A stretch of 64,000 nucleotides of DNA from SAR324 cluster bacterium (GTDB lineage: Bacteria; SAR324; XYD2-FULL-50-16; HCM1): NCBI GenBank assembly GCA_002995645.1, contig PUHO01000012.1, forward strand, positions 87,653 to 151,652, read 5' to 3'. The first letter of the stretch is position 1. Each line of letters begins with the position of its first letter. Made by a program: the position numbers and the translations under genes. The notes beneath the pieces were generated by a model. It did not search any database. It was not told the origin of the DNA and saw nothing but the letters and a program-made list of their open reading frames with translations. This document shows, one piece after another, positions 3,822 through 56,571 of this stretch.

Positions 3822-3848
3822 TCGGAATTATATTTTACGGTCAACTTA

Positions 3849-5987: not shown

Positions 5988-6026
5988 AAGTCTATTTAAT
6001 CTAATTGCCAATTTACAAAGGAATAT

Positions 6027-6608
6027 ATGAGTCAAGATACAGATAAATTATTACCACATGAATACGACGGGATTCAAGAATATGACAACAAGCTTCCAAA
6101 ATGGTGGCTGTTATTATTTTATCTTACTATTGTTATAGCGATTGTTTACCTTGCTTATTTTGAAGTTTTGAAAGTAGGTTTAAACAGCCAAGAAGCTTAT
6201 AATGTAGAAATGAAGCAAGCACAAACGCAAATAGCAAAGTATAAAGACAGTAAACACGTAACGACGTTAGCCAGCAAAAGCGAGCAAACAGACGTGCCGG
6301 TAGATAAAGAAGCAGCAGCGGCAAGAGGGGCAAAAACATTTCACTCTAATTGTTTTACATGCCATGCGGCTGATGGCGGCGGCGGTATTGGTCCTAATTT
6401 AACAGACAAATATTGGATTCATGGTGACGGTTCGTTTACCGCTATTCGAGATATTGTAGTTAAAGGTGTCATTGAAAAAGGAATGCCGCCTAAAGGTGGA
6501 CTTTCTTTAAGTGAAGCACAAGTAGACGATCTTATATATTTTGTAAAATCACTACAAAACACAACGCCAAAACAGCCTAAAGCTGCAGAAGGCAATATAG
6601 TAGAATAA
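6027..6608 (+). CDS. ccoP: cbb3 oxidase subunit CcoP-like, monohaem (N-terminal CcoP domain, TM helix and one CxxCH)
   Basis: N-terminal signature DGIQEYDNKLPKWW and a TM helix. Single haem site CFTCHAADGGGGIGPNLTDKYW. Confidence 0.7.
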   Translation: MSQDTDKLLPHEYDGIQEYDNKLPKWWLLLFYLTIVIAIVYLAYFEVLKVGLNSQEAYNVEMKQAQTQIAKYKDSKHVTTLASKSEQTDVPVDKEAAAARGAKTFHSNCFTCHAADGGGGIGPNLTDKYWIHGDGSFTAIRDIVVKGVIEKGMPPKGGLSLSEAQVDDLIYFVKSLQNTTPKQPKAAEGNIVE

Positions 6609-6612
6609 CGCA

Positions 6613-6798
6613 ATGTATACAGAAATACTATCTTCTATTCATAACATTACTATATACCCGATGATAGGGATATTTATATTTTTTATATTTTTTATATTCG
6701 TTGTTATTTGGGCGTATTTTAATCTCAGTAAAGACGAGGCGCAAAGAATCGCCTTGGCAGTCTGTGAAGAGGAACAGGAAGGCAAACGAGACGTATAA
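6613..6798 (+). CDS. ccoQ: Small membrane subunit CcoQ-like (cbb3 subunit IV)
   Basis: 61 aa with a single TM helix beginning IYPMIGIFIFF and an acidic tail. The position and the IYP.I motif are typical of CcoQ/FixQ. Confidence 0.5.
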   Translation: MYTEILSSIHNITIYPMIGIFIFFIFFIFVVIWAYFNLSKDEAQRIALAVCEEEQEGKRDV

Positions 6799-6871
6799 AC
6801 GAATCTTTGTTTTACTAACTTAACTTATATTGATCAGTAACGTTCAATAAATTTCAATAAAAAGGAAGCAA

Positions 6872-7324
6872 ATGATAATACAATCTAATCAAAAAAAAGC
6901 AATCATGGTTGCTATCGTTGCTAGTGTATTTATACTAGCTTTTGCCAACATGGGGATAGCTAAATCTAAGTTGACAAAAGGGACGTCTAAATCGGTTCCT
7001 AGTAAGACCGTAGCGAAAGCAACGCCAAAGTCTATTGCTAACGGTAAAAAAGTATATGGTAAAATTTGTATGACTTGCCATGCCATTGACGGTGGTGGAA
7101 CTATTGGTCCTAATTTAACAGATAAATATTGGATTCATGGTAATGGAGATTTCAATTCTATTATGAACGTTATATTACACGGGGTCCCGGCTAAAGGCAT
7201 GCTTCCTAAAGGTGGCTTACCTTTGAAACAACAAGATATTGTTGACCTTACACACTACGTACAGTCTTTACAAGGAACAAAGCCGGCAAAACCTAAAGCC
7301 GCAGAAGGTAAATTAATTAAATAA
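6872..7324 (+). CDS. Monohaem c-type cytochrome, paralogous to the haem domain of CcoP
   Basis: Signal/TM N-terminus. CMTCHAIDGGGTIGPNLTDKYWIHGNGDF is almost the same block as in the 6027..6608 product. Confidence 0.7.
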   Translation: MIIQSNQKKAIMVAIVASVFILAFANMGIAKSKLTKGTSKSVPSKTVAKATPKSIANGKKVYGKICMTCHAIDGGGTIGPNLTDKYWIHGNGDFNSIMNVILHGVPAKGMLPKGGLPLKQQDIVDLTHYVQSLQGTKPAKPKAAEGKLIK

Positions 7325-7396
7325 ATTTCCTTATTTGAGAAGTAACGAAGAAATGGCATAGACACGCTACTTCTTTGTTACTTCTTCTTTTATTTT

Positions 7397-8794
7397 GTGA
7401 CTATGACGACTAGTTTTAGAGATTCGTTAACTACAATGGATCAAACAGGTAAACGTGTTTGGCTTTACCCTAAAGCCGTGCGCGGTGCTATGATGCGAAA
7501 AAGAAAAGTTGTTGCTTTTCTTGCTCTTGCCTTTTTTGTTCTTGCGCCGTTTATTCGTATTCAAGGGCACCCTTTTTTCTTATTCCTTTTAGCTAAGCAA
7601 AGATTTTATATTTTTGGCAAAGTCTTTTGGCCGCACGATTTTTATATTCTCAGTATTTTACTGTTTTTTTGTATTGTTCTTGTTTTTGTGTTGACCGTTG
7701 CTTTTGGTCGTTTGTTTTGTGGTTGGATTTGTCCGCAAACTATTTTTTTAGAACATATCTTTCGCCCTATAGAACGCCTGATTGAAGGCACGCCAGCCCA
7801 GCAAAAGAAACTTAACGCTATGCCGTTTGGGTTTTATAAAGCAACAAAAAAAACGATTAAGTATATAGTATTTTTTCTTATTAGTTATGGTCTTGCTTTT
7901 TTATTATTACGCTTCTTTAATACGTGGGACACGCTTGTTGATGCCTTTTATAATTATACTGCGCATTTTGTCCTTTTAGGTTTTAATTTTGCTATTGCTC
8001 TTGTTTTATTTATTTTGTTTGTTCGCTTACGGGAGCAAGTTTGTACTTTAATTTGTCCTTATGGACGGATACAAGACGTATTGCTAGATGATAAATCATT
8101 GATTGTAAATTATGATTTTGTTCGTGGCGAACCACGAGGAAGGAAAAGCAAAAACGAAGAAGCAAAAGGAGATTGTGTTGATTGCCTTTCTTGCGTGCAA
8201 GTTTGCCCTACTGGTATAGATATTCGTAACGGAACGCAACTAGAGTGTATTAACTGCACTGCTTGCATTGATGCTTGTAATAAAATAATGTCTCGTTACG
8301 GTAAAGAGCCCGGTTTAATTCGACATGCCTCTAAAGAAGCGATTATTAACAAGACAAAAAGTTCTTTTATTACTGTTCGTAGCGTTGCTTATTTTACGGT
8401 AACTAGTCTTGTTTTAGTTGCTTTACTGTTCTTGTTACGTCAACAACCGGTGATTTCTTCTAGTATTGTGCGGACAAAAGGCAGTTTAGTATATGCACAG
8501 AAAAATGGAAATTATCGTAATATATATCAATACCATGTAATTAATAAAGCTAACCGTGTTATGTCCCTTACTTGGAAAGTGGAAAATATAAACGGGGCTA
8601 CAGTGAAGCTAATCGGAAAAGAAAATATATTGGCAAAAGCAGAAGGCTTAACAGACGGTATTTTATTTATCGAATTACCAAAAGAAGTAATACGTAAAAA
8701 ACAAGGCAATAATCATTATATTTCTGTATTAATCGGGATATATGAGCACAATACGAAATTGCAAACTTTAAAGACAACCTTTTTAGCACCTTAA
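7397..8794 (+). CDS. ccoG: cbb3 oxidase accessory 4Fe-4S ferredoxin CcoG/FixG
   Basis: Membrane N-terminus. Two ferredoxin-type cysteine clusters (CVDCLSCVQVCP and CINCTACIDAC). Sits in the cco cluster. Confidence 0.85.
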   Translation: MTMTTSFRDSLTTMDQTGKRVWLYPKAVRGAMMRKRKVVAFLALAFFVLAPFIRIQGHPFFLFLLAKQRFYIFGKVFWPHDFYILSILLFFCIVLVFVLTVAFGRLFCGWICPQTIFLEHIFRPIERLIEGTPAQQKKLNAMPFGFYKATKKTIKYIVFFLISYGLAFLLLRFFNTWDTLVDAFYNYTAHFVLLGFNFAIALVLFILFVRLREQVCTLICPYGRIQDVLLDDKSLIVNYDFVRGEPRGRKSKNEEAKGDCVDCLSCVQVCPTGIDIRNGTQLECINCTACIDACNKIMSRYGKEPGLIRHASKEAIINKTKSSFITVRSVAYFTVTSLVLVALLFLLRQQPVISSSIVRTKGSLVYAQKNGNYRNIYQYHVINKANRVMSLTWKVENINGATVKLIGKENILAKAEGLTDGILFIELPKEVIRKKQGNNHYISVLIGIYEHNTKLQTLKTTFLAP

Positions 8795-8797
8795 GTT

Positions 8798-9256
8798 ATG
8801 AATATAAAACAAGAAAAAAAATCTATACCTGTATGGGCATGGGGGATCGGTTTATTTTATACCTCGTTTGTTCTTGTTTTTGCAGGATTTGCTATATATA
8901 GTACTCATCTTGGATTTCAATTTGTTACGCCTGATTATTATAAAGATAGCGTGAACTATCAAAAGCATATTATGGCAAGACAGCGAGCGCAGAGCTTAGC
9001 AGAAAAACCGACTCTAATATATAATGCAAAAGAACAGAATATAACGTTAGAGATACCGGTTACTTTTACAAGTGGCAAATTGTTTTTTTATAGACCAAAC
9101 GATCACAAGCAAGATAGGAGTCAAGTACTTTCAAATCAAGCGACGCAAGTCTTTTCTGTACAAGACTATAGTAAAGGCAAGTGGAAAATGCAACTAACAT
9201 GGCAAACAAACGGGAAGTCGTATTACCAAGAAAAAGAATTGTATATTACAAACTAA
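8798..9256 (+). CDS. ccoH: FixH/CcoH family protein
   Basis: 152 aa with an N-terminal TM helix, immediately after ccoG. Size and architecture fit FixH. Confidence 0.55.
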   Translation: MNIKQEKKSIPVWAWGIGLFYTSFVLVFAGFAIYSTHLGFQFVTPDYYKDSVNYQKHIMARQRAQSLAEKPTLIYNAKEQNITLEIPVTFTSGKLFFYRPNDHKQDRSQVLSNQATQVFSVQDYSKGKWKMQLTWQTNGKSYYQEKELYITN

Positions 9257-9870
9257 AATTCATCACATTCTTTACAATGTATGAGTTTAGGGCACGCTGT
9301 TTTATGACATTGTGTTTGTATGTTTTGGCTAAGACGGAGTAGCCCTCTTTCCATATGTGCCGAACGCGATCCTTTAAATGCAAAAGCCGTATTTGCCGTG
9401 GCGAGTGCTGTTAGTTTTGTAAAGAGTGTTGCCAAGTCTTTAATATAGCTTACTTTTGTGTTAGTTAGCTTAGCTTGTAATATGGGATAAAGCCATTGCC
9501 CACTTTCCCCGGTTACAATTACTTCGTTTAACATGGCAAACGAACGGGAAGTCCTATTACCAAGAAAAAGAATTGTATATTACAAACTAAAATTCATCAC
9601 ATTCTTTACAATGTATGAGTTTAGGGCACGCTGTTTTATGGCATTGTGTTTGTATGTTTTGGCTAAGAAGGAGTAGCCCTCTTTCCATATGTGCCGAACG
9701 CGATCCTTTAAATGCAAAAGCCGTATTTGCTGTGGCGAGTGTTGTTAGTTTTGTAAAGAGTGTTGCTAAGTCTTTAATATAGCTTACTTTTGTGTTAGTT
9801 AGCTTAGCTTGTAATATGGGATAAAGCCATTGCCCACTTTCCCCGGTTACAATTACTTCGTCTATTCCTT
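9190..9870. repeat. Near-identical tandem direct duplication (2 x ~340 bp) spanning the fixH 3' end and the murF 3' end
   Basis: 9190-9534 matches 9531-9870 with only about 6 substitutions. Each copy carries the last ~20 codons of fixH (+ strand) and the last ~84 codons of murF (- strand). Confidence 0.85.
9253..9534 (-). pseudogene. Duplicated MurF C-terminal fragment (93-aa chimeric ORF)
   Basis: The protein is identical to MurF residues ~390-477 (VIVTGESGQWLYPILQAKLTNTK…CKECDEF) except 2 substitutions, with a new MLNE N-terminus. It lies inside duplication copy 1. Confidence 0.7.
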
Positions 9871-11020
9871 GTGTAAACGATTCGGCAATAAACGGCGCTG
9901 AGTTGGTTAACTTCTCTTCTAGTTCGGCTAAATTACCAATAACATATACTTTTTTTTCATAATCTAAGTTAGCAAGGTGTTGTGCTGTTGCTAAAACAGA
10001 TTCCGGATTGGCGTTGTAACATTCGTCTAGTAAAAACGTTTGGTTTATTCCTGTTAGGTAAGCACCGCGACCACGTAGTAAAGGCAAGGTTGTTAATCTT
10101 TGTTGCAATTTGTTTAGGTCTAATGATAATTGATCGCAGACACTTAAGCTTGCACAAATAAGAGAACCTATTACCGGGTTGAGTGAACGTATATTTGCTG
10201 TTAGTTTTGTTTTATTTGGAAAAGTAAAGCTTAACGTTTGCGTTTTATTTTGTTTATCTTGCTTTTCTATTTTCCATTGGTAGCCGCATTCGGTTGTATT
10301 GCCGAATTGTTGATATTTTGTATTACTTAATCGTTTTTGAATTTGCTCGTCATAAGGGACAAGTAAAGTGTCTGTTTCTTTAGCTTGTTCAAATAATTCT
10401 AGTTTAGCACTATAGGTATTTTCTAAAGAGCCAAATTTAGCAACATGAGCGTGTCCTACGTTCAAAACAATTCGTATTGATGCCGGAATCAATTTAGTTA
10501 GTAATGCCAGATCGCCTATGTGAGAAGCTCCCATTTCTAGCAGTGCCACTTCATGAGACGAGTCTAAGTTAAGCATAGTAACAGGGCAACCTATTTCATT
10601 ATTAAAGTTTCCTTTTGTTGCTAGGCAACGTTTTTGATCGCTAAGTAAATGAACTAGCGTTTCTTTTACTGTTGTTTTGCCATTAGATCCGGTAATAGCA
10701 ATAATAGGGATTGTTGTTTGCGTTGCTAAAAAGTGGCTGATTTGTTGCAGTGCGGCAAGCGCGTTTCCTACTTTCAAAATAGCTACGTTTTCCAAGTCGC
10801 CGTTAAAATCTTCGTCTATAACAAGTAATTTAACAGACGATCCGTTTAATTGAGAGAGAAAAGGCGTCACATTTTTAAAAGCAAAAAATATATCTTCCTT
10901 ATCTAGTTTGCGCGTGTCAAAAGCAGCGCCTTGCAATTTTTCTTGTAAATTAGACGGTGTTTTTAGCCATGTTCCTTTAGTGACTTCGGCAATGGTTTCA
11001 AAAGATAAAATTTTACTCAT
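9587..11020 (-). CDS. murF: UDP-MurNAc-tripeptide--D-Ala-D-Ala ligase (MurF) with a Cys-rich C-terminal tail
   Basis: P-loop IAITGSNGKTTVKE, Mur-ligase motifs (LDECYNANPES, KGSRS). The extra tail reads CHKTACPKLIHCKECDEF. Confidence 0.8.
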   Translation of the reverse strand: MSKILSFETIAEVTKGTWLKTPSNLQEKLQGAAFDTRKLDKEDIFFAFKNVTPFLSQLNGSSVKLLVIDEDFNGDLENVAILKVGNALAALQQISHFLATQTTIPIIAITGSNGKTTVKETLVHLLSDQKRCLATKGNFNNEIGCPVTMLNLDSSHEVALLEMGASHIGDLALLTKLIPASIRIVLNVGHAHVAKFGSLENTYSAKLELFEQAKETDTLLVPYDEQIQKRLSNTKYQQFGNTTECGYQWKIEKQDKQNKTQTLSFTFPNKTKLTANIRSLNPVIGSLICASLSVCDQLSLDLNKLQQRLTTLPLLRGRGAYLTGINQTFLLDECYNANPESVLATAQHLANLDYEKKVYVIGNLAELEEKLTNSAPFIAESFTQGIDEVIVTGESGQWLYPILQAKLTNTKVSYIKDLATLFTKLTTLATANTAFAFKGSRSAHMERGLLLLSQNIQTQCHKTACPKLIHCKECDEF

Positions 11021-21475: not shown

Positions 21476-22525
21476 TAAATAGTTATTTAAATCTAAGATC
21501 GTGCCAAAGTTAGCAGGCGGGTAATAAAAATTTGAATCTAAGATCGTGCCAGATTAGAAGGCAAACAAGAAAAAGATTGAATCTAATATCGTGCCAAGTT
21601 GGTTATGTAACTTTGAAAAAACTTGAATCTAATATCGTGCCAAAGCTGGCAGGTAAGTAAGAAAAAGATTGAATCTAAGATCGTGCCAAGTTAGGAGCAA
21701 ACAAGAAAAAAACTTGAAACTAATATCGTGCCAAAGTTAGTATATAACTTTAAAAAGATACTCATATTATGTACTCTTGCAAGAGCGAGAATATAAAGCC
21801 CTGTCTTAAAACAAAGTAATTATTTTATATAGATTGTCTTTTTCTTTTGCAAAATAAATCATTGAAAACAACAGGTTAATATAAATAGTTATTTGAATCT
21901 AAGATCGTGCCAAGTTTGCAAGAAGGTAATAAAAAAGATTGAATCTAAGATCGTGCCAAAGTGAGTAGCAAACAATAAAAAAGATTGAATCTAAGATCGT
22001 GCCAAGTTGGCAGGTAAGCAATAAAAATTTAAATCTAAGATTGTGCCAAATTGGTTATGTAACTTTGAAAAAGTGTTCATATTTTGTATTCTTTTAAGAA
22101 GATATATGCAAGAATACAAAGCCCTTCCCTTAAAACAAAGTAATTATTTTATATAGATTGTCTTTTTCTTTTGCAAAATAAGTTGTTAAAATCAAAAGCT
22201 TAATATAAATAGTTATTTGAATCTAAAATCGTGCCAAGTTAGTAGCTTACAATAAAAAAAATCTTGAATCTAATATTGTGCCAAGTTAGTAGCTTACAAT
22301 AAAAAAAATCTTGAATCTAATATTGTGCCAAGTTAGCAGATAAGCAATAAAAAAGATTGAATCTAAGATCGTGCCAAGTTAGTAGCCTACAATAAAAAAG
22401 ATTGAATCTAATACCGTGCCAAAGTTAGTATATAACTTTAAAAAGATACTCATATTATGTACTCTTGCAAGAGCAAGAATATAAAGTCCTGTCTTAAAGA
22501 AAAGTAATTACTTGATATAGATAGC
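21476..22525. repeat. Higher-order tandem satellite: 3 units (~407, ~325, ~318 bp) holding 6+4+5 copies of a ~45-bp unit
   Basis: The conserved 24-mer core TTGAATCTAAGATCGTGCCAAGTT recurs 15 times at about 45-bp spacing. Each block is followed by a ~150-bp tail with palindromes (CTCTTGCAAGAG, TTTTGCAAAA). The repeat starts 3 nt after the accD stop. Confidence 0.9.
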
Positions 22526-22580
22526 TTTCTCCTATCAAGCAAGTTATTGCTATTACAGGAAAAAGCTTGTTTTGTGAAGG

Positions 22581-24439: not shown

Positions 24440-25775
24440 GAACGAGAAGAAGTTAAGAAGGGTTAGACGAGGAATCTAGTTGCTTTTTATTTTGATTCCA
24501 TAAGTTTATCATATAGGTTTTATGAGGTCGTGATTGACGTCAATGGCATTTTCTATGTTTAGTACGAGCTAATATAGGGGCGGTGTTTTTTTATGAGGTG
24601 GTACATTTGTCATCATATATACAGCAAAAAATTTTGCATTGATTGCAAATTGTTTTCTTGCAACAGTTGCTATATAAACGAGAAGAAATTAAGAAAGGTT
24701 AGACGAGGAATCTAGTTGCTTTTTATTTTGATTCCATAGGTTTATCATATCGGTTTTATGAGGTCGTGATTGACTCCAACGGCCTTTTCTATGTTTAGTA
24801 CGAGCTAATATAGGAACGGTGTTTTTTTATGAGGTGGTACATTTGTCATGTCATATCGCGAATTTCCTATTGTGCTTTTTCACACATACGAACGGCAAGA
24901 AAATTTTGCATTGATTGCAAATTGTTTTCTTGAAACAGGTGTTATATAAACGAGAAGAAGTTAAGAAGGGTTAGGCAAGGAATCTAGTTGCTTTTTATTT
25001 TGATTCCATAAGTTTATCATATCGATTTTATGGGGGCGTGATTGACGCCAACTAGCTAATATAGGAACGGTGTTTTTTATGAGGTGGTACATTTGTCATG
25101 TCATATCGCGAATTTCCCATTGTGCTTTTTCACACATACGAACGGCAAGAAAATTTTGCATTGATTGCAAATTGTTTTCTTGAAACAGTTGCTATATAAA
25201 CGAGAAGAAATTAAGAAGGGTTAGGCAAGGAATCTGGGTGCTTTTTATTTTGATTCCATAAGTTTATCATATCGGTTTTATGAGGTCGTGATTGACTCCA
25301 ACGGCATTTTCTATGTTTAGTACTAGCTAATATAGGGTGGTGCCTTTGGTACATTTGTCATGTCATATCGCGAATTTCCTATTGTGCTCTTTCACACATA
25401 CGAACGGCAAGAAAATTTTGCATTGATTGCAAATTGTTTTCTTGCAACAGTTGCTATATAAACGAGAAGAAGTCAAGAAGGGTTAGACAAGGAATCGGGT
25501 TGCTTTTTATTTTGATTCCATAAGTTTATCATATCGGTTTTATGAGGTCGTGATTGACTCCAACGGCATTTTCTATAGGCTTGCAGGTCTTCATCACAAA
25601 ACGCATTTTGATTTTCCCAGCATTTAATACCTAGTTTAGTACGAGCTAATATAGGGTGGTGTTTTTTCATAAGGCGGTACATTTGCCATGCCATATCGCG
25701 AATTTCCCATTGTGCTCTTTCACACATACGAACGGCAAGAAAATTTTGCATTGATTGCAAATTCATAGCAAATTG
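24440..25775. repeat. Tandem array of 4 decaying ~235-270-bp copies of the thyX 3' end, plus the genuine copy
   Basis: Units begin at ~24443, 24678, 24949, 25200 and 25462 (ACGAGAAGAA…). Each carries thyX 3'-coding segments (…TTTGATTCCATAAGTTTATCATATCGGTTTTATGAGGTCGTGATTGAC… and …CATATCGCGAATTTCC.ATTGTGCT.TTTCACACATACGAACGGCAAGAAAATTTTGCATTGATTGCAAATT…). The distal copies are the most degraded. Confidence 0.85.
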
Positions 25776-26276
25776 TTCTCTTGAAACGGTCGCCATTGGC
25801 AAAGCAAAACGAGCGTCTTCTTGTTTAATACCGGCGTTAGTACATTTAGTATAAAAGTTAATACATGCTTGTTGTAGTTGCGTCCATTCTTCTAGAATAG
25901 CAGGATTTTCTTTAAACGATGGAGGCGTTACAAAAGCACCTATTCCTTTTGTAAAGTTAACATATCGTTGCGACATTTCTTCGCGTTCTACGCCGATATG
26001 GTGGCGATTAAATTGCGCTGTTGCCGCACGTGAAATCCCGTCTACAACAAAAATGAAATGGCTTTGCCGAAGTGGGCTACTATGTCCGGTTTGTAGCTTT
26101 TCCGCGATAAAGTCTTCCATTTGCTGTTCGCTAATATCTCCGTTATTAATTTGCTGCCAAAGTTCGCTTGCGCTGATTCGAGAGTAGCAAATACGAAAAG
26201 CGGAGTATATAATCGCAATAGGATTATTAGAAACGCCAAGTAATTCAACTTTTATATCTGTTTGTCCTGATTTCAT
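25473..26276 (-). CDS. thyX: Flavin-dependent thymidylate synthase ThyX (C-terminus runs into the repeat array)
   Basis: ThyX fold blocks (QFAMNLQSMQNFLAVRMCERAQWEIRDMA). The signature region reads FNRHHIGVEREEMSQRY, a divergent form of RHRx7S. The last ~35 codons are encoded by the first repeat unit. Confidence 0.75.
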   Translation of the reverse strand: MKSGQTDIKVELLGVSNNPIAIIYSAFRICYSRISASELWQQINNGDISEQQMEDFIAEKLQTGHSSPLRQSHFIFVVDGISRAATAQFNRHHIGVEREEMSQRYVNFTKGIGAFVTPPSFKENPAILEEWTQLQQACINFYTKCTNAGIKQEDARFALPMATVSREQFAMNLQSMQNFLAVRMCERAQWEIRDMAWQMYRLMKKHHPILARTKLGIKCWENQNAFCDEDLQAYRKCRWSQSRPHKTDMINLWNQNKKQPDSLSNPS

Positions 26277-41151: not shown

Positions 41152-43014
41152 ATGAGTAAAATAGTTTTAGTTTCAGATACAAATAACCTGATTTACGATT
41201 CCTTTAAAGAAGCGCTTGTTTCTTATATAGGTTCCCAAAATTTAATATATCTAAAAGATACAAGTATGCTTGTGCCAACTTTAAAAGAGGCGGCAGTTGA
41301 TATTGTATTTTTAGAATATACTGATTCGGTTAAAGAACTGATTTCTATTATTCGCGATGATGCGTTACTTTCTCATTTAATTATTATTTTAACCTATGGC
41401 GGAAGGAAGCAACTTTCACTTTCTGTTGCAAAAGACCTAGGGGCGGACGATATCCTTGAAAAACCGTTTGAAGTTATAGAAGTTAGGCAAAAAATAGATC
41501 TTTTTCATGCCAATACAACCTATTCGCAAGATCTTACGCATATTAATATTGTTGATCCCGTTATGGCAGAACTATTAGCTTCGGCAAGTAACGCGATACA
41601 ACAAACAAAGCAAAATCAAGAAGATAGTATTGAAGAAAGAGAACAACAATCGCCTATTCATATTAATAACCCTCTTGATACAGAACAAGACGACGATATA
41701 GCAAACGAGTTTAACCTATCTGATTTAGATGACGAAGAGAGCTCTATTACAGCAGCTAGCAGTATAAACAAAGAAGAACGTACTTTGCTTTTAGACGAGG
41801 AAGATAACGAAAAACTAACTTCGCCTATTAACATTCATGTACCTGATACGCAAGAATCAAATGACTTTCAAAATAAACCGGCAACACCGGATCAATACGG
41901 CATTTTAGCAATCCCTGTTGTTAGTGATACGCCGGATAGTAGCTTAAATCTATATGAAGAAGAGGATTCGCAAGATGATAGAGATTTATTTGCTGCTGAA
42001 GAAGAAGAAGCGGAAGCAGTTTCTCTTTTTGGAGAATATAATGATGACCTGCTACCATTAGAGTCGAACTTTATTTTTGAAGACGATACGAGCGAAGTTG
42101 AAACCGATTTTACTAGTGACAACGATACAAGCGAAGAAGAGCCCGGTTTTATCTTTGTAGAAGATGATAGCGAAGAAATAAAGTTAGATCCAGATTTTAC
42201 CTTTGAAGAAGATAGCGCAGAAATAGATCTAGATCCAGATTTTACCTTTGAAGAAAATACGAGCGAAGACGAATCAGACTTTTTATTTGAAGAAAATACG
42301 AGCGACAACGAAGAGGAATCGGACTTTTTATTTGAAGAAGTTACAAGCGAAGACGAAGACGAATCAGACTTTTTATTTGAAGAAGATACGAGCGAAAACG
42401 AAGAGGAATCAGACTTTTTGTTTCAAGACAGCAGTAATGAAGAACTAGTGCCAGAGCCTAACTTTACTATTGAAGAAGATAGCGAAGAACTACAATTAGA
42501 ACCTAATTTTATTGTTGAAGAAGACAGCAACGAAGAAATACAATTAGACCCGGATTTTTCCTTTGAAGAAGATACCACGGAAAGCGATATATTTGTAGAT
42601 TCAAACGAAGAAGAACTAGCGGCATTAGACAATATAAATACTTTGCAACAACCTTCTTTTATTGACACAGAAGACCAAGTTGAGCAAGAAGAAGATAATT
42701 TTATTTTTTCTTTAGAGAATTATAAAAGTAATGAAAGTGATACGTTTTCTCAAAAATTGAAAGAAGCCGGTTTGCATTTAGAAACAAAAAGACATACTGA
42801 TATGTCTAGTATTTCTATTCCTAGTGACGATATACACGCACACATAGCTAAAGACGTATTTGCGTTAAATGACCTTACAATGAGTGATATTATCCCAGAT
42901 GAAGACAAGGCAGACGCAAAAGAAAACAGGCAACCGTCTTTAGACAAACAAGCTTTAATTAAAGATATTCTTGAACGTGCAACAGAAGATATTACGAAAA
43001 TTATTCAAAAGTAA
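41152..43014 (+). CDS. Atypical (pseudo-)receiver domain protein with a long acidic repeat-rich tail
   Basis: The N-terminal ~115 aa have the CheY-like beta1-beta5 pattern (IVLVSDT…, VDIVFLEYTD, IIILTYGG, ILEKPF), with Glu where the phospho-acceptor Asp is expected and Ser-Asp for the acidic pair. Residues ~150-520 are D/E-rich with repeated DPDFTFEEDS / ESDFLFEENTS units, encoded by 60-66-bp DNA repeats around 42140-42440. Confidence 0.5.
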   Translation: MSKIVLVSDTNNLIYDSFKEALVSYIGSQNLIYLKDTSMLVPTLKEAAVDIVFLEYTDSVKELISIIRDDALLSHLIIILTYGGRKQLSLSVAKDLGADDILEKPFEVIEVRQKIDLFHANTTYSQDLTHINIVDPVMAELLASASNAIQQTKQNQEDSIEEREQQSPIHINNPLDTEQDDDIANEFNLSDLDDEESSITAASSINKEERTLLLDEEDNEKLTSPINIHVPDTQESNDFQNKPATPDQYGILAIPVVSDTPDSSLNLYEEEDSQDDRDLFAAEEEEAEAVSLFGEYNDDLLPLESNFIFEDDTSEVETDFTSDNDTSEEEPGFIFVEDDSEEIKLDPDFTFEEDSAEIDLDPDFTFEENTSEDESDFLFEENTSDNEEESDFLFEEVTSEDEDESDFLFEEDTSENEEESDFLFQDSSNEELVPEPNFTIEEDSEELQLEPNFIVEEDSNEEIQLDPDFSFEEDTTESDIFVDSNEEELAALDNINTLQQPSFIDTEDQVEQEEDNFIFSLENYKSNESDTFSQKLKEAGLHLETKRHTDMSSISIPSDDIHAHIAKDVFALNDLTMSDIIPDEDKADAKENRQPSLDKQALIKDILERATEDITKIIQK

Positions 43015-43027: not shown

Positions 43028-44137
43028 ATGACAGCCTATAAAAAAAAACCGACGCCGTATCTCCTCCTATTTTCCATTATTTGTTTACTTGGCATTGGTA
43101 TTTTAATGGTCTATTCTTCTAGTGCCATTTATGCTAATACCTATAATCGAAGTAATTTTTATTTCTTTAATAGACAACTTGGCTTTGTTGGGCTTGGTAT
43201 CCTTCTTTTTTTTGTCGTTATAAAATATCCCTATCAAAAATATAGATCTTGGATTCCTGTTTTACTAGGCATCTGTTTTGTTGCGCTTATTCTTGTTTTA
43301 ATTCCACGTATTGGACATGAAGTCGGGCATGCAAAACGTTGGTTTCGTATTGCTCATTTTAGTTTGCAACCTAGTGAACTGCTCAAAATTGCTATTTTAC
43401 TTTGGGGCGCTGATTTCTTAGATCGTAAACATGCTTATCTTGCCCAATTTTCACGTAGCTTGTTTCCGGCTTCTATTATCCTAGGTGTTTATTGCGTTCT
43501 TTTATTGGCGCAACCTGATTTTGGAACTGCCGTTTTGCTGGTTACTACGTTTATGATAATGTTCTTTGTTGCTGGCGGAAGAAAAACGCATATCTTTTTT
43601 AGTGGGCTTGTTATTAGTGCGATTGGCTCGGCGTTAGTGATTTTTAGCCCGTATCGTTTTCGTCGTATTGAATCGTTTTTAACCCCATGGAATGATCCAA
43701 CAGGAAGCGGTTATCAATTAATTCAATCGCTCATTGCCGTTGCAACCGGTGGTATTTTTGGAAAAAATTTAGGAAACTCAACGCAAAAACTATTTTTCTT
43801 GCCTGAAGCTCATACTGATTTTATTTTTGCTATTCTTGCAGAAGAGCTAGGCTTTATTGGTGTTTGTATTGTTGTTTTTCTTGTGTTGCTTTTTTTGCAA
43901 CAATCTTTAAAAATTGCTCGTCATTGTAAAGATAGATTTGGTAGAAACTTAGCTTGCGGTATTGCCGCGCTAGTCACTTTCCAAGCTATTATTAATATGA
44001 GCGTTGTTCTTGGTATTTTCCCAACAAAAGGGATCCCGTTTCCTTTTGTTAGTTACGGAGGGAGTTCTTTGATTACTATGATGATATTATCCGGCATATT
44101 ATTCAATATCGCTGTTAGCAATGAAACGCAAAAATAA
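43028..44137 (+). CDS. ftsW: Peptidoglycan glycosyltransferase, SEDS family (FtsW/RodA); FtsW by context
   Basis: 10-TM SEDS protein (…PEAHTDFIFAILAEELGFIG…). Immediately upstream of, and overlapping, murG. Confidence 0.8.
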   Translation: MTAYKKKPTPYLLLFSIICLLGIGILMVYSSSAIYANTYNRSNFYFFNRQLGFVGLGILLFFVVIKYPYQKYRSWIPVLLGICFVALILVLIPRIGHEVGHAKRWFRIAHFSLQPSELLKIAILLWGADFLDRKHAYLAQFSRSLFPASIILGVYCVLLLAQPDFGTAVLLVTTFMIMFFVAGGRKTHIFFSGLVISAIGSALVIFSPYRFRRIESFLTPWNDPTGSGYQLIQSLIAVATGGIFGKNLGNSTQKLFFLPEAHTDFIFAILAEELGFIGVCIVVFLVLLFLQQSLKIARHCKDRFGRNLACGIAALVTFQAIINMSVVLGIFPTKGIPFPFVSYGGSSLITMMILSGILFNIAVSNETQK

Positions 44138-45212
44138 ACCTACTAGCATTATAATTGCCGGCGGTGGTAGTGGCGGACATTTATTCCCGGGCATTGCTAT
44201 TGCGCAAGAACTGGAAGCCCAGTTGGATTCAAGTATAATCTATTTTATTGGCTCACGTTACGGCATTGAGTCGCGCGTTTTTCCTACTTTAAAATACCGC
44301 TGTTTCTTATTACCTATATCAGGATTATACAAAGTTGGTGCTATACGTAAGCTGCTTGGTTTACTGCGCTTTGCTTATTCTGTTGTATATACCTTTTTTT
44401 TGACGTTATATATACGCCCTCACGTCGTGATTGGCGTTGGCGGTTATGCGTCCGGTGCGGCTATGTTGTGCGGTTTATTACTACGTAGAAATTTAGTTAT
44501 TCAAGAACAAAACGCATCACCGGGCATGACAAATCGCTTTCTAGGTAAGTATGCCAAACTAGCTTTTGTGCCGTTTTCCGGTATGGAAAAGTTTTTTCCT
44601 AATCCTGTTGTTGTTGGCAATCCTATTCGTAAAGAAATATTGCAAGTTAAAGCATATACGCCACAAGACAAGGTCAATTTGTTGATTGTTGGCGGGAGTC
44701 AAGGTTGCCATGCTATTAACATGGCTTGCATAGAAGCCTTGCCTATTCTTGCCGATTTAGCTGATCAGATTCGTATTATACACCAAAGCGGCTACCGAGA
44801 TTATGAGATTTTGCAAGACGCTTATGCAAAATATCCAAAGCTAGAAGCGCAAGTTTTCCCTTTTGCTGAGAACATGGCAGAATTATATAGTCAAAGTCAT
44901 TTGCTATTGTGCCGTTCCGGTTCTATTATTCATGAAATTATTGTAGCCGGTAGGGGTATGTTGTTAGTGCCGTTTCCTAATGCGAGCGGGAATCATCAGT
45001 TGCGAAACGCTGAGTATATTGTAGAAAAGCAAGCAGGTATTTTGTTAGAACAAGACGAGCAATTAGGCGAAAAGCTGATACAAGTTTTACAGAGATTGTT
45101 GCAGAATACGAATGAAATAGAAGAGATGGCAAAGCAAGCGAAGAGCTTAGCAAAGACAGATGCGACAAAAGAAATCAGTGAAACAATTCTTTCTTTTTAT
45201 AAGCTGAAGTAA
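44121..45212 (+). CDS. murG: UDP-GlcNAc:undecaprenyl-PP-MurNAc-pentapeptide GlcNAc transferase
   Basis: N-terminal G-loop IIAGGGSGGHLFPGIAIAQEL. C-terminal GT28 domain. 17-nt overlap with ftsW. Confidence 0.85.
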   Translation: MKRKNKPTSIIIAGGGSGGHLFPGIAIAQELEAQLDSSIIYFIGSRYGIESRVFPTLKYRCFLLPISGLYKVGAIRKLLGLLRFAYSVVYTFFLTLYIRPHVVIGVGGYASGAAMLCGLLLRRNLVIQEQNASPGMTNRFLGKYAKLAFVPFSGMEKFFPNPVVVGNPIRKEILQVKAYTPQDKVNLLIVGGSQGCHAINMACIEALPILADLADQIRIIHQSGYRDYEILQDAYAKYPKLEAQVFPFAENMAELYSQSHLLLCRSGSIIHEIIVAGRGMLLVPFPNASGNHQLRNAEYIVEKQAGILLEQDEQLGEKLIQVLQRLLQNTNEIEEMAKQAKSLAKTDATKEISETILSFYKLK

Positions 45213-47560
45213 ACAATTTCATGCTATAAATATAACTTGTGTAGAAATGTTGTGAATTTTCGCCAGAGGTTGCCAATTTTTTCTAAGAACATAGCAGAGC
45301 TATATAGCCCCTGTGATATTGTTCTTATTCTACCTATTATTCATGAAATGCATGTAGCCAGTAATAGTATGTTATTATTGCCTTTTTCTTTCGCTAGTAA
45401 GAATCATTAATTACAGAATGTAGAAGAGATGGCAAAGCAAGCGAAGAGCTTAGCTATGTTTAAAAAATTTAACAACAACCGGCATGTTATGGTTCCGATT
45501 TTGTCATAGCCATCAAGGGTATATTGTTAGTATCGTTTCCTTGTGCTAGCAGATAGAAGAGATCCAAGCAAAGGCAGGTCGATAAAAGAAATTAGTGAAA
45601 CAATTATTTCTTTTTATAAGCTAAGGTAAACAAGTTCAAATTTAAAACTTTATGTGACGTACTCAAAGCTAGAAGCGTAAGTTTTTCTTGTTGTGGTTCC
45701 AGTTTTGTCATAGCCAGCAAGAGTATATCGTTAGTATTGTTTTCTTGTGCTAGCAGATAGAAGAGATCCAAGCAAAGGCAGGGCAAGAAACAATCCTTTC
45801 TTTTTATAAGCTGAAGTAAACAATTTCATGCTGTAAATATAACTTGTGTAGTAGTGTTGTGAAGTTTCGCTAAAGCTTGCCAAGTTTTCCCTAAAAACAT
45901 AGCAGAGCTATACAGCAAAGCCGTTTATTATGATATTGTTCTTATCCTGCCTATTCTCCATGAAATGCTTGTAATCGTTAAGATTATGTTATTGTTGCTT
46001 TTTTGTGCTAGTAAGAATCATTAATTACAGAATATAGAAGAGATGGCAAAGACAGGGCGACAAAAGAAATTAGTGAAACAATCCTTTCTTTTCATAAGTC
46101 TGCATACATAATTCAATTTAAAACTTTATGTGACGTACTCAAAGCTAGAAGCGTAAGTTTTTCTTGTTGTGGTTCCAGTTTTGTCATAGCCAGCAAGAGT
46201 ATATCGTTAGTATTGTTTCCTTGTGCTAGCAGATAGAAGAGATCCAAGCAAAGGCAGAGCAAGAAACAATCCTTTCTTTTTATAAGCTAAAGTAAACAAT
46301 TTCATGCTATAAATATAACTTGTGTAGAAATATTGCCAAGTTTTGCCAGAGATTGCCAATTCCCCCTAAAAACATAGCAGCGCTGTATAGCCCCGTTTGT
46401 TATGATGATGTTGTTCTTATCCTGCCTATTATTCATGAAATGTTTGTAGCCGGTAAGAGTATGTTGTTATTGCCTTTTTATTGTGCTAGTGAGAATCATT
46501 AATTACAGAATATAGAAGAGCTTAGCAAAGACAGGGCGACAAAAGAAATTAGTGAAACAATCCTTGCTTTTTATAAACTGAAGTAAATAATTTCATGCTG
46601 TAAATATAACTTGTGTAGTAGTGTTGTGAAGTTTCGCCAGAGGTTGCAATTTTTCCCAAGAACATAGCAGAACTATATAGCCCCTTTTGTTATGTTGTTA
46701 CTGCCGTCCAACCACCCCTTATCCGGCGCAGGATTAAAGCCACCTATGTTGTTACTGCCGTCCAGCCAGCCAGCCAACCAAGCAAAGACAGGGCGACAAA
46801 AGAAATTAGTGAAACAATCCTTTCTTTTTATAAGCTAAAGTAAACAATTTCATGCTATAAATATAACTTGTGTAGAAATATTGCCAAGTTTTGCCAGAGA
46901 TTGCCAATTCCCCCTAAAAACATAGCAGCGCTGTATAGCCCCGTTTGTTATGATGTTGTTGTTCTTATCCTGCCTATTATTCATGAAATGCTTGTAGCCG
47001 GTAATAGTATATTATTATTGCCTTTTTCTTGCACCAGTAAGAATCATTAATTACAGAATATAGAAGAGATGGCAAAGCAAGCGAAGAGCTTAGCCAAGAC
47101 AGATGCGACAAAAGAAATCAGTGAAACAATCCTTTCTTTTTATAAACTGAAGTAAATAATTTCATGCTGTAAATATAACTTGTGTAGAAATATTGCCAAG
47201 TTTCGCCAGAGGTTGCAAGTTTTCCCAAGAACATAACAGAGCTATATAGCCCCGTTTGTTATGATATTGTTCTTATCCTGCCTATTATTCATGAAATTAT
47301 TGTAGCCAGTAATAGTATATTATTATTGCCTTTTTGTGCTAGTAAGAATCATTAATTACAGAATATAGAAGGCAATCAAGCAAAGGCAGGGCAAGAAACA
47401 ATCCTTTCTTGTTATAAGTTGAAGTAGAGATTTCAATTTAAAACTTTATGTGGCGTACTCAAAGCTAAAAGCGTAAGTTTTTCTTGTTGTTCCAGATTTG
47501 TTATAGCCAGCAAGGTATATTGTTAGTATCGTTTTCTTGTAAAGGGAAATGCGATAAAAC
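45213..47560. pseudogene. About 2.3-kb array of decayed tandem copies of the murG 3' end (about 5-6 units, two alternating sub-unit types)
   Basis: Recognisable, repeated murG 3'-coding strings: …AGATGGCAAAGCAAGCGAAGAGCTTAGC…, …AAAGAAAT(C/T)AGTGAAACAAT.CTTTCTTTTTATAAGCTGAAGTAAACAATTTCATGCT…, …CAAAGCTAGAAGCG(C/T)AAGTTTT…. ORF-track fragments 45604..45786, 46320..46502 and 46868..47050 translate to MurG-like pieces (…LPIIHEMFVAGKSMLLLPF…). An odd GC-rich insert lies at ~46690-46790. Confidence 0.85.
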
Positions 47561-47585
47561 AGAGTGAAGAAATAAAGGGAAGCAA

Positions 47586-47624
47586 ATAAAAAACCTCTTT
47601 TACATAAGTGAAAGAGGTTTTTAA
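47586..47624. terminator. Bidirectional rho-independent terminator between the murG-fragment array and secG
   Basis: Perfect 10-bp stem AAACCTCTTT / AAAGAGGTTT with a 10-nt loop, flanked by an A-run on the left and a T-run on the right. Confidence 0.6.
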
Positions 47625-47643
47625 GTAGGTGGCTATTTTAGAA

Positions 47644-48081
47644 CTATTTCTTTTTAGGTTTTGTTTCTTTAGTAGCCTTAGCTTTTGTATCAACAGTAGC
47701 CGGTTTAGCTTTAGCTTTTGTGTCAACAGTAGCTGCTTTTGCTTTAGTAGCTTTAGCTTTTGTGTCGGTAGCTTTCGTAGCCGTATTTTTATCTTTTGTT
47801 GTCTCTACCGTTTTTACTTGTTTTTCTGAAACAGCATTAAGTACCGAATTATTAGCTTGTCTAGCTGTCATTACACTTAAGGTAATAGAAGTCAACATGA
47901 AAATAGTAGCAAGCCAAGTTGTTAATTTTGTTAAAAAGTTACCAACTGTTCTTGGGCTATTAGCTTGTCCGGCACTTCCAAAAGCTGCCCCAAGTTCGGC
48001 ACCGCGCCCCACTTGGCTTAAAACAATAAAAATAATAAGAATAGACACACTAAGGTGTAAGGTAAGTAAAAGACCGTTCAT
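47644..48081 (-). CDS. secG: Preprotein translocase subunit SecG with a K/A/T-rich C-terminal extension
   Basis: SecG core (LSQVGRGAELGAAFGSAGQANS…), then a ~45-aa tail TKATDTKAKATKAKAATVDTKAKAKPATVDTKAKATKETKPKKK encoded by a ~30-bp DNA tandem repeat. Confidence 0.75.
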   Translation of the reverse strand: MNGLLLTLHLSVSILIIFIVLSQVGRGAELGAAFGSAGQANSPRTVGNFLTKLTTWLATIFMLTSITLSVMTARQANNSVLNAVSEKQVKTVETTKDKNTATKATDTKAKATKAKAATVDTKAKAKPATVDTKAKATKETKPKKK

Positions 48082-55737: not shown

Positions 55738-55759
55738 GTCGTATTAGGGGGGAATAGAA

Positions 55760-56100
55760 GGCGTTTTATTGGAAGGGCGTTGTTTTTATTTTGGTTGGCA
55801 AGGTTAGTATGGCAAAGGTGGTGAATTAGGATTGCTTTTGTGAGGGCTAAAGAAAATTGCTTTTTCTGGTGGTAAATCTTGATAAACTGGTTTTATATTT
55901 TGAAGGCTAAAGAAAAATTGCTTTTGCTAGTGGTGAATTTTATTTGAAGAGGCGTTGCTTTTACTTTAGGTTAGCAAGGTTAGTGCGGCAAAGGTGATAA
56001 ACTAGTTTTGCTTTTTTATATAGCAGGTTTTCCCTTTTTGCAAAGTCAAGATTGCAAACGTGATAAATTGATTTTACTTTTTTGCACTTTAAAGAAATAA
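55760..56100. repeat. Degenerate direct repeats (~190-bp units with internal ~60-bp sub-repeats) in an 830-bp non-coding region
   Basis: GCAAGGTTAGT(A/G)(T/C)GGCAAAGGTG… at 55798 and 55973. GGCTAAAGAAAA(A)TTGCTTTT.CT.GTGGT.AAT at 55843 and 55904. About five copies of GTGATAAAYTNG.TTTKCTTTT. Confidence 0.5.
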
Positions 56101-56571
56101 AAAAGAAAGAAGTTGTTTTTTAAAGTATAAGCGTGCTATTTATACAATTCTAAAGAAAAATTGCCTTTTTAAAAGGAAAATATAAACATAAATAAAAGAA
56201 AAGTACGACAAAAACGTCTTGTTTAAAAATAAAATATTTACAAAAACACTTGTAAAAACAAACGGATAACACGGTTACGGACTTTTGTCTTTAAAACAGG
56301 ACGTTTTAACGGCAAAATGGTTTGCCCTTTTATGTCTATATAGGTCGCTTTTCTTTAATAAATACAAGGGGAAAACGGATTGTCTTCTTTTTTTTAAGAT
56401 GACAAAAACTGTCATGGTTTTTTATAAAAAATAAATTGTATCTTCCTGTTGTTGCAAGATAATTATGCTAAATTCGCTTGGGTTTTAGTGTGAAAAAGTA
56501 CTGTTTTTAAAAGAGTACAAAAGTTGTCTTGTTTTTCGTACTAAGATAAAAGTAGTACATAAATTACGTAT

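Follow-up and report, generated by a model that had tools for sequence, protein, structure and literature searches.

Ten decaying copies of the murG 3′ end between convergent operons of a SAR324 cluster bacterium: a probable neutral by-product of tandem duplication

How did an intact murG gene in a SAR324 cluster bacterium come to be followed by ~2.4 kb of broken copies of its own 3′ end, and does this DNA do anything for its host? In many bacteria murC and ftsQAZ follow murG, and an earlier note on this locus placed the array where murC-ftsQ-ftsA-ftsZ would be expected. We analyzed the array within a 64-kb window, meaning the whole stretch of DNA under study, whose coordinates are used throughout, and compared it with the corresponding loci of related genomes. 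We conclude that the array is very probably a neutral by-product of recurrent tandem duplication, which is tolerated at gene 3′ ends, and that no function is needed to account for it.

Anatomy and descent of the array

From 45213 to 47589 the window is filled, head to tail on the plus strand and without gaps, by ten degenerate copies of the murG 3′ end, all derived from its last ~515 bp (44697 to 45212; Table 1). The first base of the array is the one directly after the murG TAA stop codon, and at the far end (~47589) the last, eroded unit abuts a terminator. BLASTN comparison of 45213 to 47640 with murG returned 20 matches, all on the plus strand and all to 44836 to 45260, at 68 to 100% identity and with E-values as low as 2e-60. 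They include a segment of the first unit that is 100% identical to murG (45421 to 45454 versus 45118 to 45151) and a stretch running from the 3′ part of unit L5 onward that is 93.8% identical (47060 to 47203 versus 45117 to 45260). Based on tblastn and alignment, the 48 bases after the stop codon duplicate the part of murG that codes for residues 197 to 211 (HAINMACIEAL). TRF and a repeat search both recovered the murG-tail array, with a period of 476 bp.

The earlier note had described, immediately after the stop codon, eroded murG 3′-end copies of two subtypes, and BLASTN, TRF, and alignment all confirm this. The array itself is real, but its dimensions needed revision: there are ten units rather than 5 or 6, the source segment is ~515 rather than ~400 bp, and the end lies at ~47589 rather than 47560. 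The two subtypes correspond to a long (L) lineage with six units and a short (S) lineage with four, but they do not strictly alternate as proposed, the order being L S S L S L L L L S. Annotators should not treat the small murG-like open reading frames (ORFs) within the array as genes.

Table 1. Features of the murG-secG interval, in window coordinates
Feature	Position	Strand	Description	Evidence
murG	44121..45212	+	Intact parent gene	TIGR01133, 259 bits versus cut-off 250; profile positions 3-353 of 353
Unit L1	45213..45454	+	Long; starts right after murG stop, tail truncated	Alignment
Unit S1	45455..45629	+	Short	BLASTN, alignment
Unit S2	45630..45819	+	Short; 98% identical to S3	Alignment
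Unit L2	45820..46107	+	Long	Alignment
Unit S3	46108..46295	+	Short	TRF period 476; repeat family 93% identical
Unit L3	46296..46586	+	Long; 95% identical to L5	Repeat family 96% identical at 548-bp spacing
Unit L4	46587..46843	+	Long; middle replaced by C-rich insert	Alignment
Insert core (in L4)	46710..46779	+	35 nt non-murG, second 20-nt direct-repeat copy, (CCAG)n-like run	Alignment, TRF period 4
Unit L5	46844..47155	+	Long	Alignment, BLASTN
Unit L6	47156..47427	+	Long	Alignment
Unit S4	47428..47589	+	Short; last and most eroded, tail runs into terminator	Alignment
Terminator	47589..47622	.	Bidirectional, intrinsic, common to murG side and secG; outside repeat unit	15-nt arms, 93% complementary
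secG	47644..48081	-	Convergent with murG; followed by tpiA, pgk	TIGR00810; 45% identical to SecG of relative L011

Relative to murG, one and the same ~108-bp gap (44999 to 45106) is present in all ten units, which therefore descend from one founder copy. The L and S units each retain parent segments that are missing from the other type, so both derive from a founder that was fuller than either. Duplication of whole blocks, 476 and ~548 bp in size, later enlarged the array. The blocks S2-L2 and S3-L3 form a 476-bp higher-order repeat, and across the nested duplications of the two sizes S2 and S3 are 98% identical, L3 and L5 are 95% identical, and the blocks are 93 to 96% identical. The 98% identity between S2 and S3 suggests that the array has been active recently.

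Assemblers can miscount near-identical blocks of this kind, and likewise the 97.6% murF duplication described below. A single public assembly contains the sequence, the count of its most closely matching units (95 to 98%) is provisional, and the nearest relatives are metagenome-derived genomes (nearest Pgk 65% and nearest MurG 48% identical). Even so, we consider it highly improbable that one murG terminus, or a set of strain variants, was wrongly strung together into an array. The units diverge by 23 to 38% from their murG parent and by 2 to 49% from one another, they carry unit-specific insertions and deletions, and they share the 108-bp deletion that is absent from murG; such sequences must exist in the reads. 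Stop codons and frameshifts, which the units also contain, would not be carried by strain variants of an essential gene. Misassembly of a single murG terminus, which the earlier note had named as part of what would overturn its reading, is contradicted by the same divergence and unit-specific indels.

Gene neighborhood and array boundary

The genes leading up to the array are rlpA, two unknown genes, ftsW, and murG, an order that is not that of the division and cell wall (dcw) cluster. As in the canonical dcw cluster, ftsW and murG are adjacent and overlapping, but no other gene of the cluster adjoins them: murF stands alone, 35 kb from murG, and mraY, murD, murE, and ftsI do not adjoin ftsW. 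The conserved unit in this lineage instead has ftsW and murG following a receiver-like repeat protein, and murG ends this module in all four relatives compared (MurG 42 to 48% identical). What comes after murG in these relatives is arsC (L010; L013 and L014), vanY (L012), or a convergent secG-tpiA-pgk (L011). The last of these shares the gene order found here but has no array, its murG and secG being 48 bp apart. We found no intergenic arrays in the sampled relatives and no match to the conserved unit tail in a metagenome scan, and a scan of genome contigs with MurG recovered only relatives at 30 to 33% identity. A mobile element (MITE or insertion sequence) was considered as the source of the units and rejected, as terminal inverted repeats are absent and no copies exist elsewhere in the window or in the loci of the relatives.

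The gene order bears directly on the proposal that the array marks the site of a lost murC-ftsQ-ftsA-ftsZ block, with the gap filled by murG-tail copies. Among the 52 ORFs of at least 100 amino acids in the window there is no murC and no fts gene besides ftsW, which speaks for a loss. However, murG is already terminal in the module of the four relatives, L011 has the identical murG/secG convergence across its 48-bp spacer, and the dcw genes are already dispersed in the genome studied here. The murG-derived units moreover fill the interval apart from ~50 nt, and they therefore leave no room for remnants of other genes. We regard the loss of a division gene block from this site as improbable in the extreme, and the placement of the array where murC and ftsQAZ would follow does not stand, given that four relatives end the module at murG and that secG lies only 48 bp away in one of them. 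Judged from gene order, the array is an expansion of a short spacer (~50 bases in the relative) and did not take the place of lost genes. That the dcw genes are dispersed is a trait of the lineage, and the array is not a scar left by lost division genes.

At its downstream end the array meets the terminator shared with secG. Folding of this element gave z-scores of -5.1 on the plus strand and -4.3 on the minus strand, with U runs on both sides, and together with the TIGR00810 match this agrees with the strong bidirectional terminator followed by secG that had been described at the array end. Between the murG stop codon and 47589 we detected no intrinsic terminator, the unit tails folding like shuffled sequence (z about 0), and read-through into the array is therefore expected. 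The minus strand contains six matches to TTGGCA/TTCACA-16-TATATT (10 of 12 positions), one per long-unit head, the first of which lies right after the murG stop codon. The presence of a promoter-like minus-strand site in each long unit is an observation that sits less easily with neutrality. Counted together, promoter-like sites total 14 versus 10.7 ± 3.0 expected, which is within chance. No Rfam family was found in the array with an E-value below 0.1.

Decay, probable exchange with murG, and the C-rich insert

The units look like dead, nonfunctional DNA that is decaying neutrally. Every unit contains stop codons and frameshifts, 36 codons are missing from all of them, and the variable columns are spread evenly across codon positions (p = 0.45 to 0.89). 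All 12 substitution types are present among the units, and per-site substitutions are more frequent for G>A (0.30) and C>T (0.27) than for A>G (0.13) and T>C (0.11). The GC content of the units is 32 to 35% (42% in L4, with its insert) versus 38.5% in the parent segment.

Similarity to the live gene is mosaic within individual units. The 3′ part of L5 is 96% identical to murG versus 70% for its 5′ part (Fisher exact p = 1.3e-7), and the corresponding values for L3 are 92% versus 73% (p = 7e-4). The best-conserved segment of the units is their last ~50 nt, at 85 to 96% identity to the parent. The closer resemblance of the 3′ ends than of the 5′ parts to murG points to continuing recombination with the live gene. 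The high conservation of the last ~50 nt would also fit selection on that segment. Ten broken copies still exchanging sequence with an essential cell wall gene would represent a standing mutational hazard, comparable to the inactivation of ntrX in Ehrlichia ruminantium (PMC9937504).

Promoter-less partial 3′ copies beside an expressed gene, combined with a signature of exchange with that gene, recall systems of programmed variation. The array could in principle be a set of silent donor cassettes, as in Neisseria pilE/pilS and Borrelia vlsE, in which tandem, promoter-less, 5′-truncated copies likewise lie beside the expressed gene, or a set of template repeats of a diversity-generating retroelement aimed at the 3′ end of the gene. 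The cassettes of those systems, however, are in-frame variants of a surface protein, whereas the units here are broken fragments of a cytoplasmic enzyme. MurG is a housekeeping enzyme of the cytoplasmic face, and ThyX and MurF, which are also such enzymes, show the same pattern. Every one of the would-be cassettes has stop codons, frameshifts, and the 36-codon deletion, which would inactivate murG. The substitutions are not adenine-specific, being dominated by G>A and C>T; scanned ORFs of at least 100 amino acids in the window gave no match to a reverse transcriptase family, and the neighbors are ftsW, murG, secG, tpiA, and pgk. Programmed variation is thus hardly credible as an explanation for this array.

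Unit L4 contains the sequence that had been singled out as an odd GC-rich insert at ~46690 to 46790. A non-murG part does exist, but it amounts to only ~50 bases, and the rest is derived from murG. This part consists of ~35 nt (46710 to 46744) and a (CCAG)n-like run of 16 nt (46764 to 46779) and is bracketed by a 20-nt direct repeat (46691 to 46710 and 46745 to 46764). The insert lies in the most C-over-G-skewed 78-nt plus-strand stretch of the 64-kb window (C 40% versus G 18%). The C-rich patch is confined to this one unit, and the window holds no second copy of the insert. The suggestion that it might be a foreign fragment was followed up by searching metagenome, viral, plasmid, and phage collections (the metagenome and viral collections by exact match), and no match beyond chance was found. 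The sole plasmid match, 27 nt within the (CCAG)n run (E = 0.02), is at chance level, and these searches speak neither for nor against a foreign origin. We dropped the idea that the insert arose from the replaced segment through AT-to-GC hypermutation, as the two are only ~30% identical base by base.

These features could be taken to mean that the array is kept for a role at the RNA level. The ftsW-murG transcript might carry a long untranslated 3′ extension terminated by Rho, with the C-rich insert as the Rho loading site, or antisense promoters, one per long unit, might yield transcripts that pair with the murG tail or insulate the convergent operons. The expected read-through as far as 47589, the six promoter-like sites at the heads of the long units, the position of the insert within the most C-skewed stretch of the window, and the conservation of the unit tails would all be compatible with such a role. 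We nevertheless consider it unlikely. Promoter-like sites are in total no more numerous than chance allows, and the six represent copies of a single sequence that emerged when a coding segment turned A/T-rich. The conservation of the tails is high identity to the live murG and is explained by recombination, the C-rich patch occurs in only one unit, and a spacer of 48 bp suffices in L011, whose gene order is the same. In addition, the thyX and murF arrays of the window share no sequence with the murG array, so they have no element in common.

Duplication at gene 3′ ends

Other intergenic intervals of the window have grown in a similar manner. Downstream of thyX lie four repeats of its last ~290 bp (74 to 97% identity), and the murF tail has undergone a 334-bp tandem duplication (97.6% identity) whose borders share at most 2 nt and which leaves a spare murF tail. 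Two further intergenic arrays occur in the same 64 kb. Intergenic tandem repeat accounts for ~7.8% of the window, and arrays are present at three of its four convergent junctions. We found no sequence common to the murG array and the thyX and murF arrays. The array between accD and pepA was examined as another possible gene tail and is derived from neither flanking gene, so not every array is a gene tail. Read as a clear stepwise record of intergenic growth, the window contains a young murF tail (97.6%), a middle-aged, four-copy thyX array, and an old, ten-copy, two-lineage murG array. The three arrays derived from genes all consist of 3′ tails, and most arrays lie at convergent junctions, which fits selection, rather than the mutational process, deciding where duplications survive.

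From the anatomy of the array, its single founder, the block duplications, the decay and mosaic parent similarity of the units, the ancestral synteny, and these other arrays, we infer a molecular mechanism and an order of events that involve no function. In the ancestor, murG would have ended a few bases before the bidirectional terminator common to the convergent secG, as in L011. One illegitimate tandem duplication of the last ~515 bp of murG, through replication slippage or unequal exchange with little or no homology, would have placed a duplicate after the stop codon and before the terminator. Of the two copies, the first would have stayed joined to the gene, leaving murG intact, and the second would have been free to decay because it had no start codon and no ribosome-binding site. 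This founder copy probably lost ~108 bp and split into a long and a short lineage, each with its own deletions. Unequal recombination between homologous units would then have multiplied blocks, 476 and ~548 bp in size, until the present ten units were reached, and sequence from the live murG, delivered by these exchanges or by gene conversion, would keep refreshing the 3′ ends of the units.

Only duplications that span a gene 3′ end or fall in promoter-free spacers would be expected to escape purifying selection, and the genome seems not to delete such duplications quickly. Tolerance at 3′ ends together with slow deletion would explain why the gene-derived arrays are all 3′ tails and lie mostly at convergent junctions. 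A more elaborate scheme, in which an active and perhaps enzyme-driven process duplicates 3′ ends at "safe," mostly convergent junctions and the arrays are perhaps retained for an RNA role (Rho-ended 3′ extensions with a C-rich loading site, or antisense promoters tuning ftsW-murG versus secG-tpiA-pgk), appears quite unlikely to us.

Neutral tandem duplication of this kind has a counterpart among known systems. By analogy, the murG array is most likely an instance of tandem duplication of the E. ruminantium type, yielding pseudogenes that are 3′ gene fragments, with contiguous same-strand copies, neutral decay, and several affected loci. Tandem repeats reportedly make up ~8.5% of the E. ruminantium chromosome, and most of its pseudogenes are said to be truncated gene fragments tied to repeats. 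The resemblance lies in long intergenic regions that arise from tandem duplications of approximately one hundred to several hundred base pairs, in partial copies next to their parents, and in the involvement of several loci per genome. Active expansion and contraction at tandem repeats lying within noncoding DNA has been described for E. ruminantium genomes (PMC10710844). The key evidence there is copy-number variation between strains, whereas here it comes from one assembly. The hosts also differ, in that the bacterium studied here is not a reduced obligate intracellular alphaproteobacterium but belongs to a deep-branching, deltaproteobacteria-like lineage with lipopolysaccharide, peptidoglycan, a cbb3 oxidase, and amino acid transporters.

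A second parallel from E. ruminantium is ntrX, which undergoes gene conversion with a nearby partial duplicate; that duplicate is single, inverted, and derived from near the 5′ end of the gene, and transfer from copy to parent is documented (PMC9937504). In both cases nonexpressed partial copies appear to exchange segments with their parent, as the 3′ ends (92 to 96%) versus 5′ parts (~70%) of the units here suggest. In contrast to ntrX, the murG copies are ten in number, direct, and taken from the 3′ end, and harmful copy-to-parent transfer is not seen, murG being intact. Bacteria usually delete junk DNA fast; 2.4 kb with up to ~40 to 50% divergence among units is unusual and could hint that the array is retained for a reason.

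Layout and growth of the murG-tail array

Intact murG is followed by ten decaying head-to-tail copies of its own 3' end. Selectively neutral tandem duplication, repeated over time and accompanied by concerted evolution, very probably produced this array. BLASTN returned 20 murG matches in the downstream 2.4 kb, all on the plus strand and to murG 44836-45260 (E-values down to 2e-60), and Tandem Repeats Finder and a second repeat search independently reported the repeats, with a higher-order period of 476 bp. The ten-base anchor GTGAAACAAT, from the MurG C-terminal codons, occurs ten times with ≤2 mismatches allowed, once inside murG and nine times downstream. We set unit borders at the stop-codon equivalents and aligned the cut pieces to murG, which yielded long (L) and short (S) units (see the table). 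A protein-level search shows that the first ∼48 bases past the murG stop codon are no original spacer but a degraded version of the stretch encoding MurG residues 197-211 (HAINMACIEAL); this copy implies a source segment of ∼515 bp (44697-45212) and a duplication junction within a few bases of the stop codon. The murG-tail graveyard proposed in an earlier note is therefore real, and its description is sharpened to ten units and a ∼515-bp source.

Features of the murG region, the thyX array parent and the relatives' loci (window coordinates, except for the relatives)
Feature	Coordinates	Strand	Remark
murG	44121-45212	+	intact; full length of TIGR01133 profile matched, above curated cutoff
L1	45213-45454	+	begins directly after murG stop codon
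S1	45455-45629	+	alignment to parent
S2	45630-45819	+	alignment to parent
L2	45820-46107	+	alignment to parent
S3	46108-46295	+	alignment to parent
L3	46296-46586	+	alignment to parent
L4	46587-46843	+	bears C-rich insert
L5	46844-47155	+	alignment to parent
L6	47156-47427	+	alignment to parent
S4	47428-47589	+	most eroded unit; adjoins terminator
L4, 20-nt direct repeat	46691-46710, 46745-46764	+	second copy belongs to replacement
L4, non-murG part	46710-46744	+	35 nt, no murG homology
L4, (CCAG)n-like run	46764-46779	+	repeat finding and alignment
Promoter-like sites	45229-45256, 45836-45863, 46312-46339, 46603-46630, 46860-46887, 47172-47199	-	long-unit heads
thyX	25473-26276	-	parent of second 3'-tail array
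L010, receiver-like gene	3756-8873		then ftsW-murG-arsC
L013/L014, receiver-like gene	3117-6866/2781-6866		then ftsW-murG-arsC
L012, receiver-like gene	4146-6682		then ftsW-murG-vanY
L011, receiver-like gene	3371-6817		then ftsW-murG, 48 bp, convergent secG-tpiA-pgk

A single ∼108-bp stretch (murG 44999-45106, 36 codons), present in live murG, is missing from every one of the ten units, so they all descend from a single founder copy with this deletion already in place. Long units also lack murG 44754-44838, part of which is kept in the short units, and the latter lack 44697-44802 and about 44866-44905; because each type retains something lost by the other, both derive from a fuller common ancestor. 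Identity is 98% for S2 versus S3, 95% for L3 versus L5, 89% for L1 versus L6, 74 to 86% for the remaining long pairs, and 51 to 72% between types, compared with 62 to 77% between copies and murG. S2 plus the head of L2 matches S3 plus the head of L3 (93%), and the tail of S3 plus L3 matches the tail of L4 plus L5 (96%), indicating growth by duplication of multi-unit blocks, as would be expected of unequal exchange between already homologous units. Misassembly of a single murG terminus, listed in the earlier note under what would refute its reading, is contradicted by many substitutions and unit-specific indels, both against murG and among units, and by the common deletion missing from murG itself; only the exact count of the most similar units is open to assembly error. 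A mobile element was likewise ruled out, as there are no terminal inverted repeats in the array and no further copies in the rest of the window or at the loci of the relatives.

Decay, probable exchange with murG, and transcription

Compared with MurG, each unit is interrupted by stop codons and shifts of frame, and the three codon positions of the parental frame have similar numbers of variable columns in both long (34/37/44, p = 0.45) and short (21/24/21, p = 0.89) units. Scored against the parent, G>A (0.30 per G) and C>T (0.27 per C) are far more frequent than A>G (0.13) and T>C (0.11), and GC content is 32 to 35% in the units versus 38.5% in the parent segment. Such a bias is what mutation normally leaves in DNA free of constraint when the genome is A/T rich; it is not the adenine-specific signature of a diversity-generating retroelement, a reading that we rejected.

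The last ∼100 bp of the units are much nearer murG than their 5' parts: 96% versus 70% identity in L5 (p = 1.3e-7) and 92% versus 73% in L3 (p = 7e-4), with significant differences also in S2, S3, L2, and L4. L1 even contains a stretch (45421-45454) identical to murG 45118-45151. Uniform neutral decay cannot yield such unevenness, but recombination of the units with the live murG tail, by gene conversion or by unequal crossing-over, could. The copies thus appear to be nonfunctional DNA that continues to exchange sequence with murG, for which ntrX of Ehrlichia ruminantium, with documented exchange between the gene and its own partial duplicate, offers a precedent (PMC9937504).

The sole strong intrinsic terminator is a bidirectional hairpin at the array end (47589-47622; z = -5.1 and -4.3), as the earlier note described, and it lies outside the repeat unit. 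Termination inside the array, which that note had also raised, finds no support in the unit tails, where we detected no intrinsic terminators (folding z-scores, ∼0), suggesting that murG transcripts probably read through into the array. No Rfam family matched the array at E < 0.1. The head of each long unit has a minus-strand promoter-like site (TTGGCA or TTCACA, 16 nt, TATATT; 10 of 12 positions matched), antisense toward the preceding murG tail, that arose from a coding segment turned A/T-rich.

In the alignment, the central segment of L4 is replaced; the change is recent, because L6, which arose as its partner in one block duplication, retains the normal sequence there. The direct repeat resembles murG 44957-44973 (16 of 17 bases). 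The insert is single copy within the window, and searches of metagenome, viral, plasmid, and phage collections for the foreign source that the earlier note had asked about gave no credible match; filler DNA left by repair or by template switching is the simplest reading. The insert falls in the 78-nt plus-strand stretch with the strongest C-over-G skew of the window (C 40%, G 18%), opposite to the G excess that otherwise prevails on the plus strand, a composition resembling a Rho loading site, which we offer only as a lead.

Gene order around murG

The window order is rlpA, two unknown genes, ftsW, murG, and the array, followed by secG-tpiA-pgk on the opposite strand. The nearest MurG sequences among 5.8 billion proteins searched are only 42 to 48% identical, and the nearest Pgk is 65% identical. 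Named relatives derive from metagenomes and are labeled "Deltaproteobacteria bacterium," "bacterium," "Proteobacteria bacterium," and "SAR324 cluster." Gene orders at the four relatives' loci that were fetched place murG at the operon end in this lineage, and together with the 48-bp murG-secG spacer of L011, whose receiver-like protein and SecG are homologs of the window's own, they indicate that the array expanded a short spacer; a connection with absent division genes (murC-ftsQAZ), as the earlier note framed it, is not supported. The murG/secG convergence is ancestral or, at a minimum, shared. Among the 52 window ORFs of ≥100 aa, there is no murC, ftsQ, ftsA, or ftsZ, and mraY, murD, murE, and ftsI are not present in the 64 kb. 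Cell wall genes are dispersed, with murF alone at 9587-11020, between an unknown 568-aa gene and a 334-bp duplication, and ftsW-murG as a separate pair (43028-45212).

Directly upstream of ftsW-murG, in the window (41152-43014) and in 4 of 4 relatives, lies the second unknown gene, encoding a protein with a receiver-like N terminus (620 aa in the window; 620 to 1,705 aa overall; split into 231-aa receiver and 614-aa proteins in L012) and acidic in-frame tandem repeats (45-bp units at 42160-42548). Conserved and unstudied, this FtsW-MurG partner may outrank the array in interest. In secG (47644-48081, minus strand), the part encoding the C-terminal extension includes 2.3 in-frame tandem copies of a 33-bp unit (47673-47747); SecG is 145 aa here versus 121 aa in L011.

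Other repeats in the window

Intergenic tandem repeats total ∼5.0 kb (7.8% of the window), with arrays at three of four convergent junctions; in 17- to 21-kb samples of the five closest loci, the giant receiver-like gene is the only place with tandem repeats. Each of the three gene-derived arrays is made of 3' tails. A duplication spanning the 3' end would leave the gene whole and add an untranslated fragment, whereas an internal one would break the gene and be removed by selection, which may explain this restriction. The closest known parallel to the murG array is the tandem-repeat-driven intergenic expansion of E. ruminantium (PMC10710844); the lineage here is unrelated to that species and poorly sampled.

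Immediately downstream of thyX (24455-25472, minus strand) lies a younger case of the same phenomenon. Four tandem copies of its last ∼290 bp (24455-25435) are 74 to 97% identical, each with a TAA stop codon (TGA in the gene) and about 12 to 18 poststop bases; an internal ∼57 bp is missing from most of them. A tandem duplication of exactly 334 bp (9195-9862; 8 mismatches, 97.6%; border homology, ≤2 nt) straddles the convergent tails of an ORF (8798-9256, plus strand) and murF (minus strand), so that both genes remain whole and a spare tail of each lies between them; at this identity, it may conceivably be a strain-variant assembly artifact. The accD-pepA convergent spacer (21487-22531) holds a 1-kb array of three ∼324-bp superunits, in each of which a 46-bp unit (TTGAATCTAAGATCGTGCCAAGTTAG... 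and a following A-rich stretch) recurs three to five times ahead of a ∼140-bp segment. It derives from neither flanking gene and could be a protein-binding-site array or another kind of junk.

A noncoding 830-bp region (55738-56571) has imperfect ∼175-bp repeats (55764-55839 versus 55938-56015, 83%) and contains the most G-over-C-skewed 78-nt stretch of the window, which starts at 55746. Finally, ccoNO, a fused cbb3 oxidase subunit I/II gene (3849-5987; 1,218 bits to PRK14485), precedes a pair of paralogous CcoP-like cytochrome c genes (6027-7324) sharing 68% DNA identity over 260 bp (6350-6608 versus 7066-7324).
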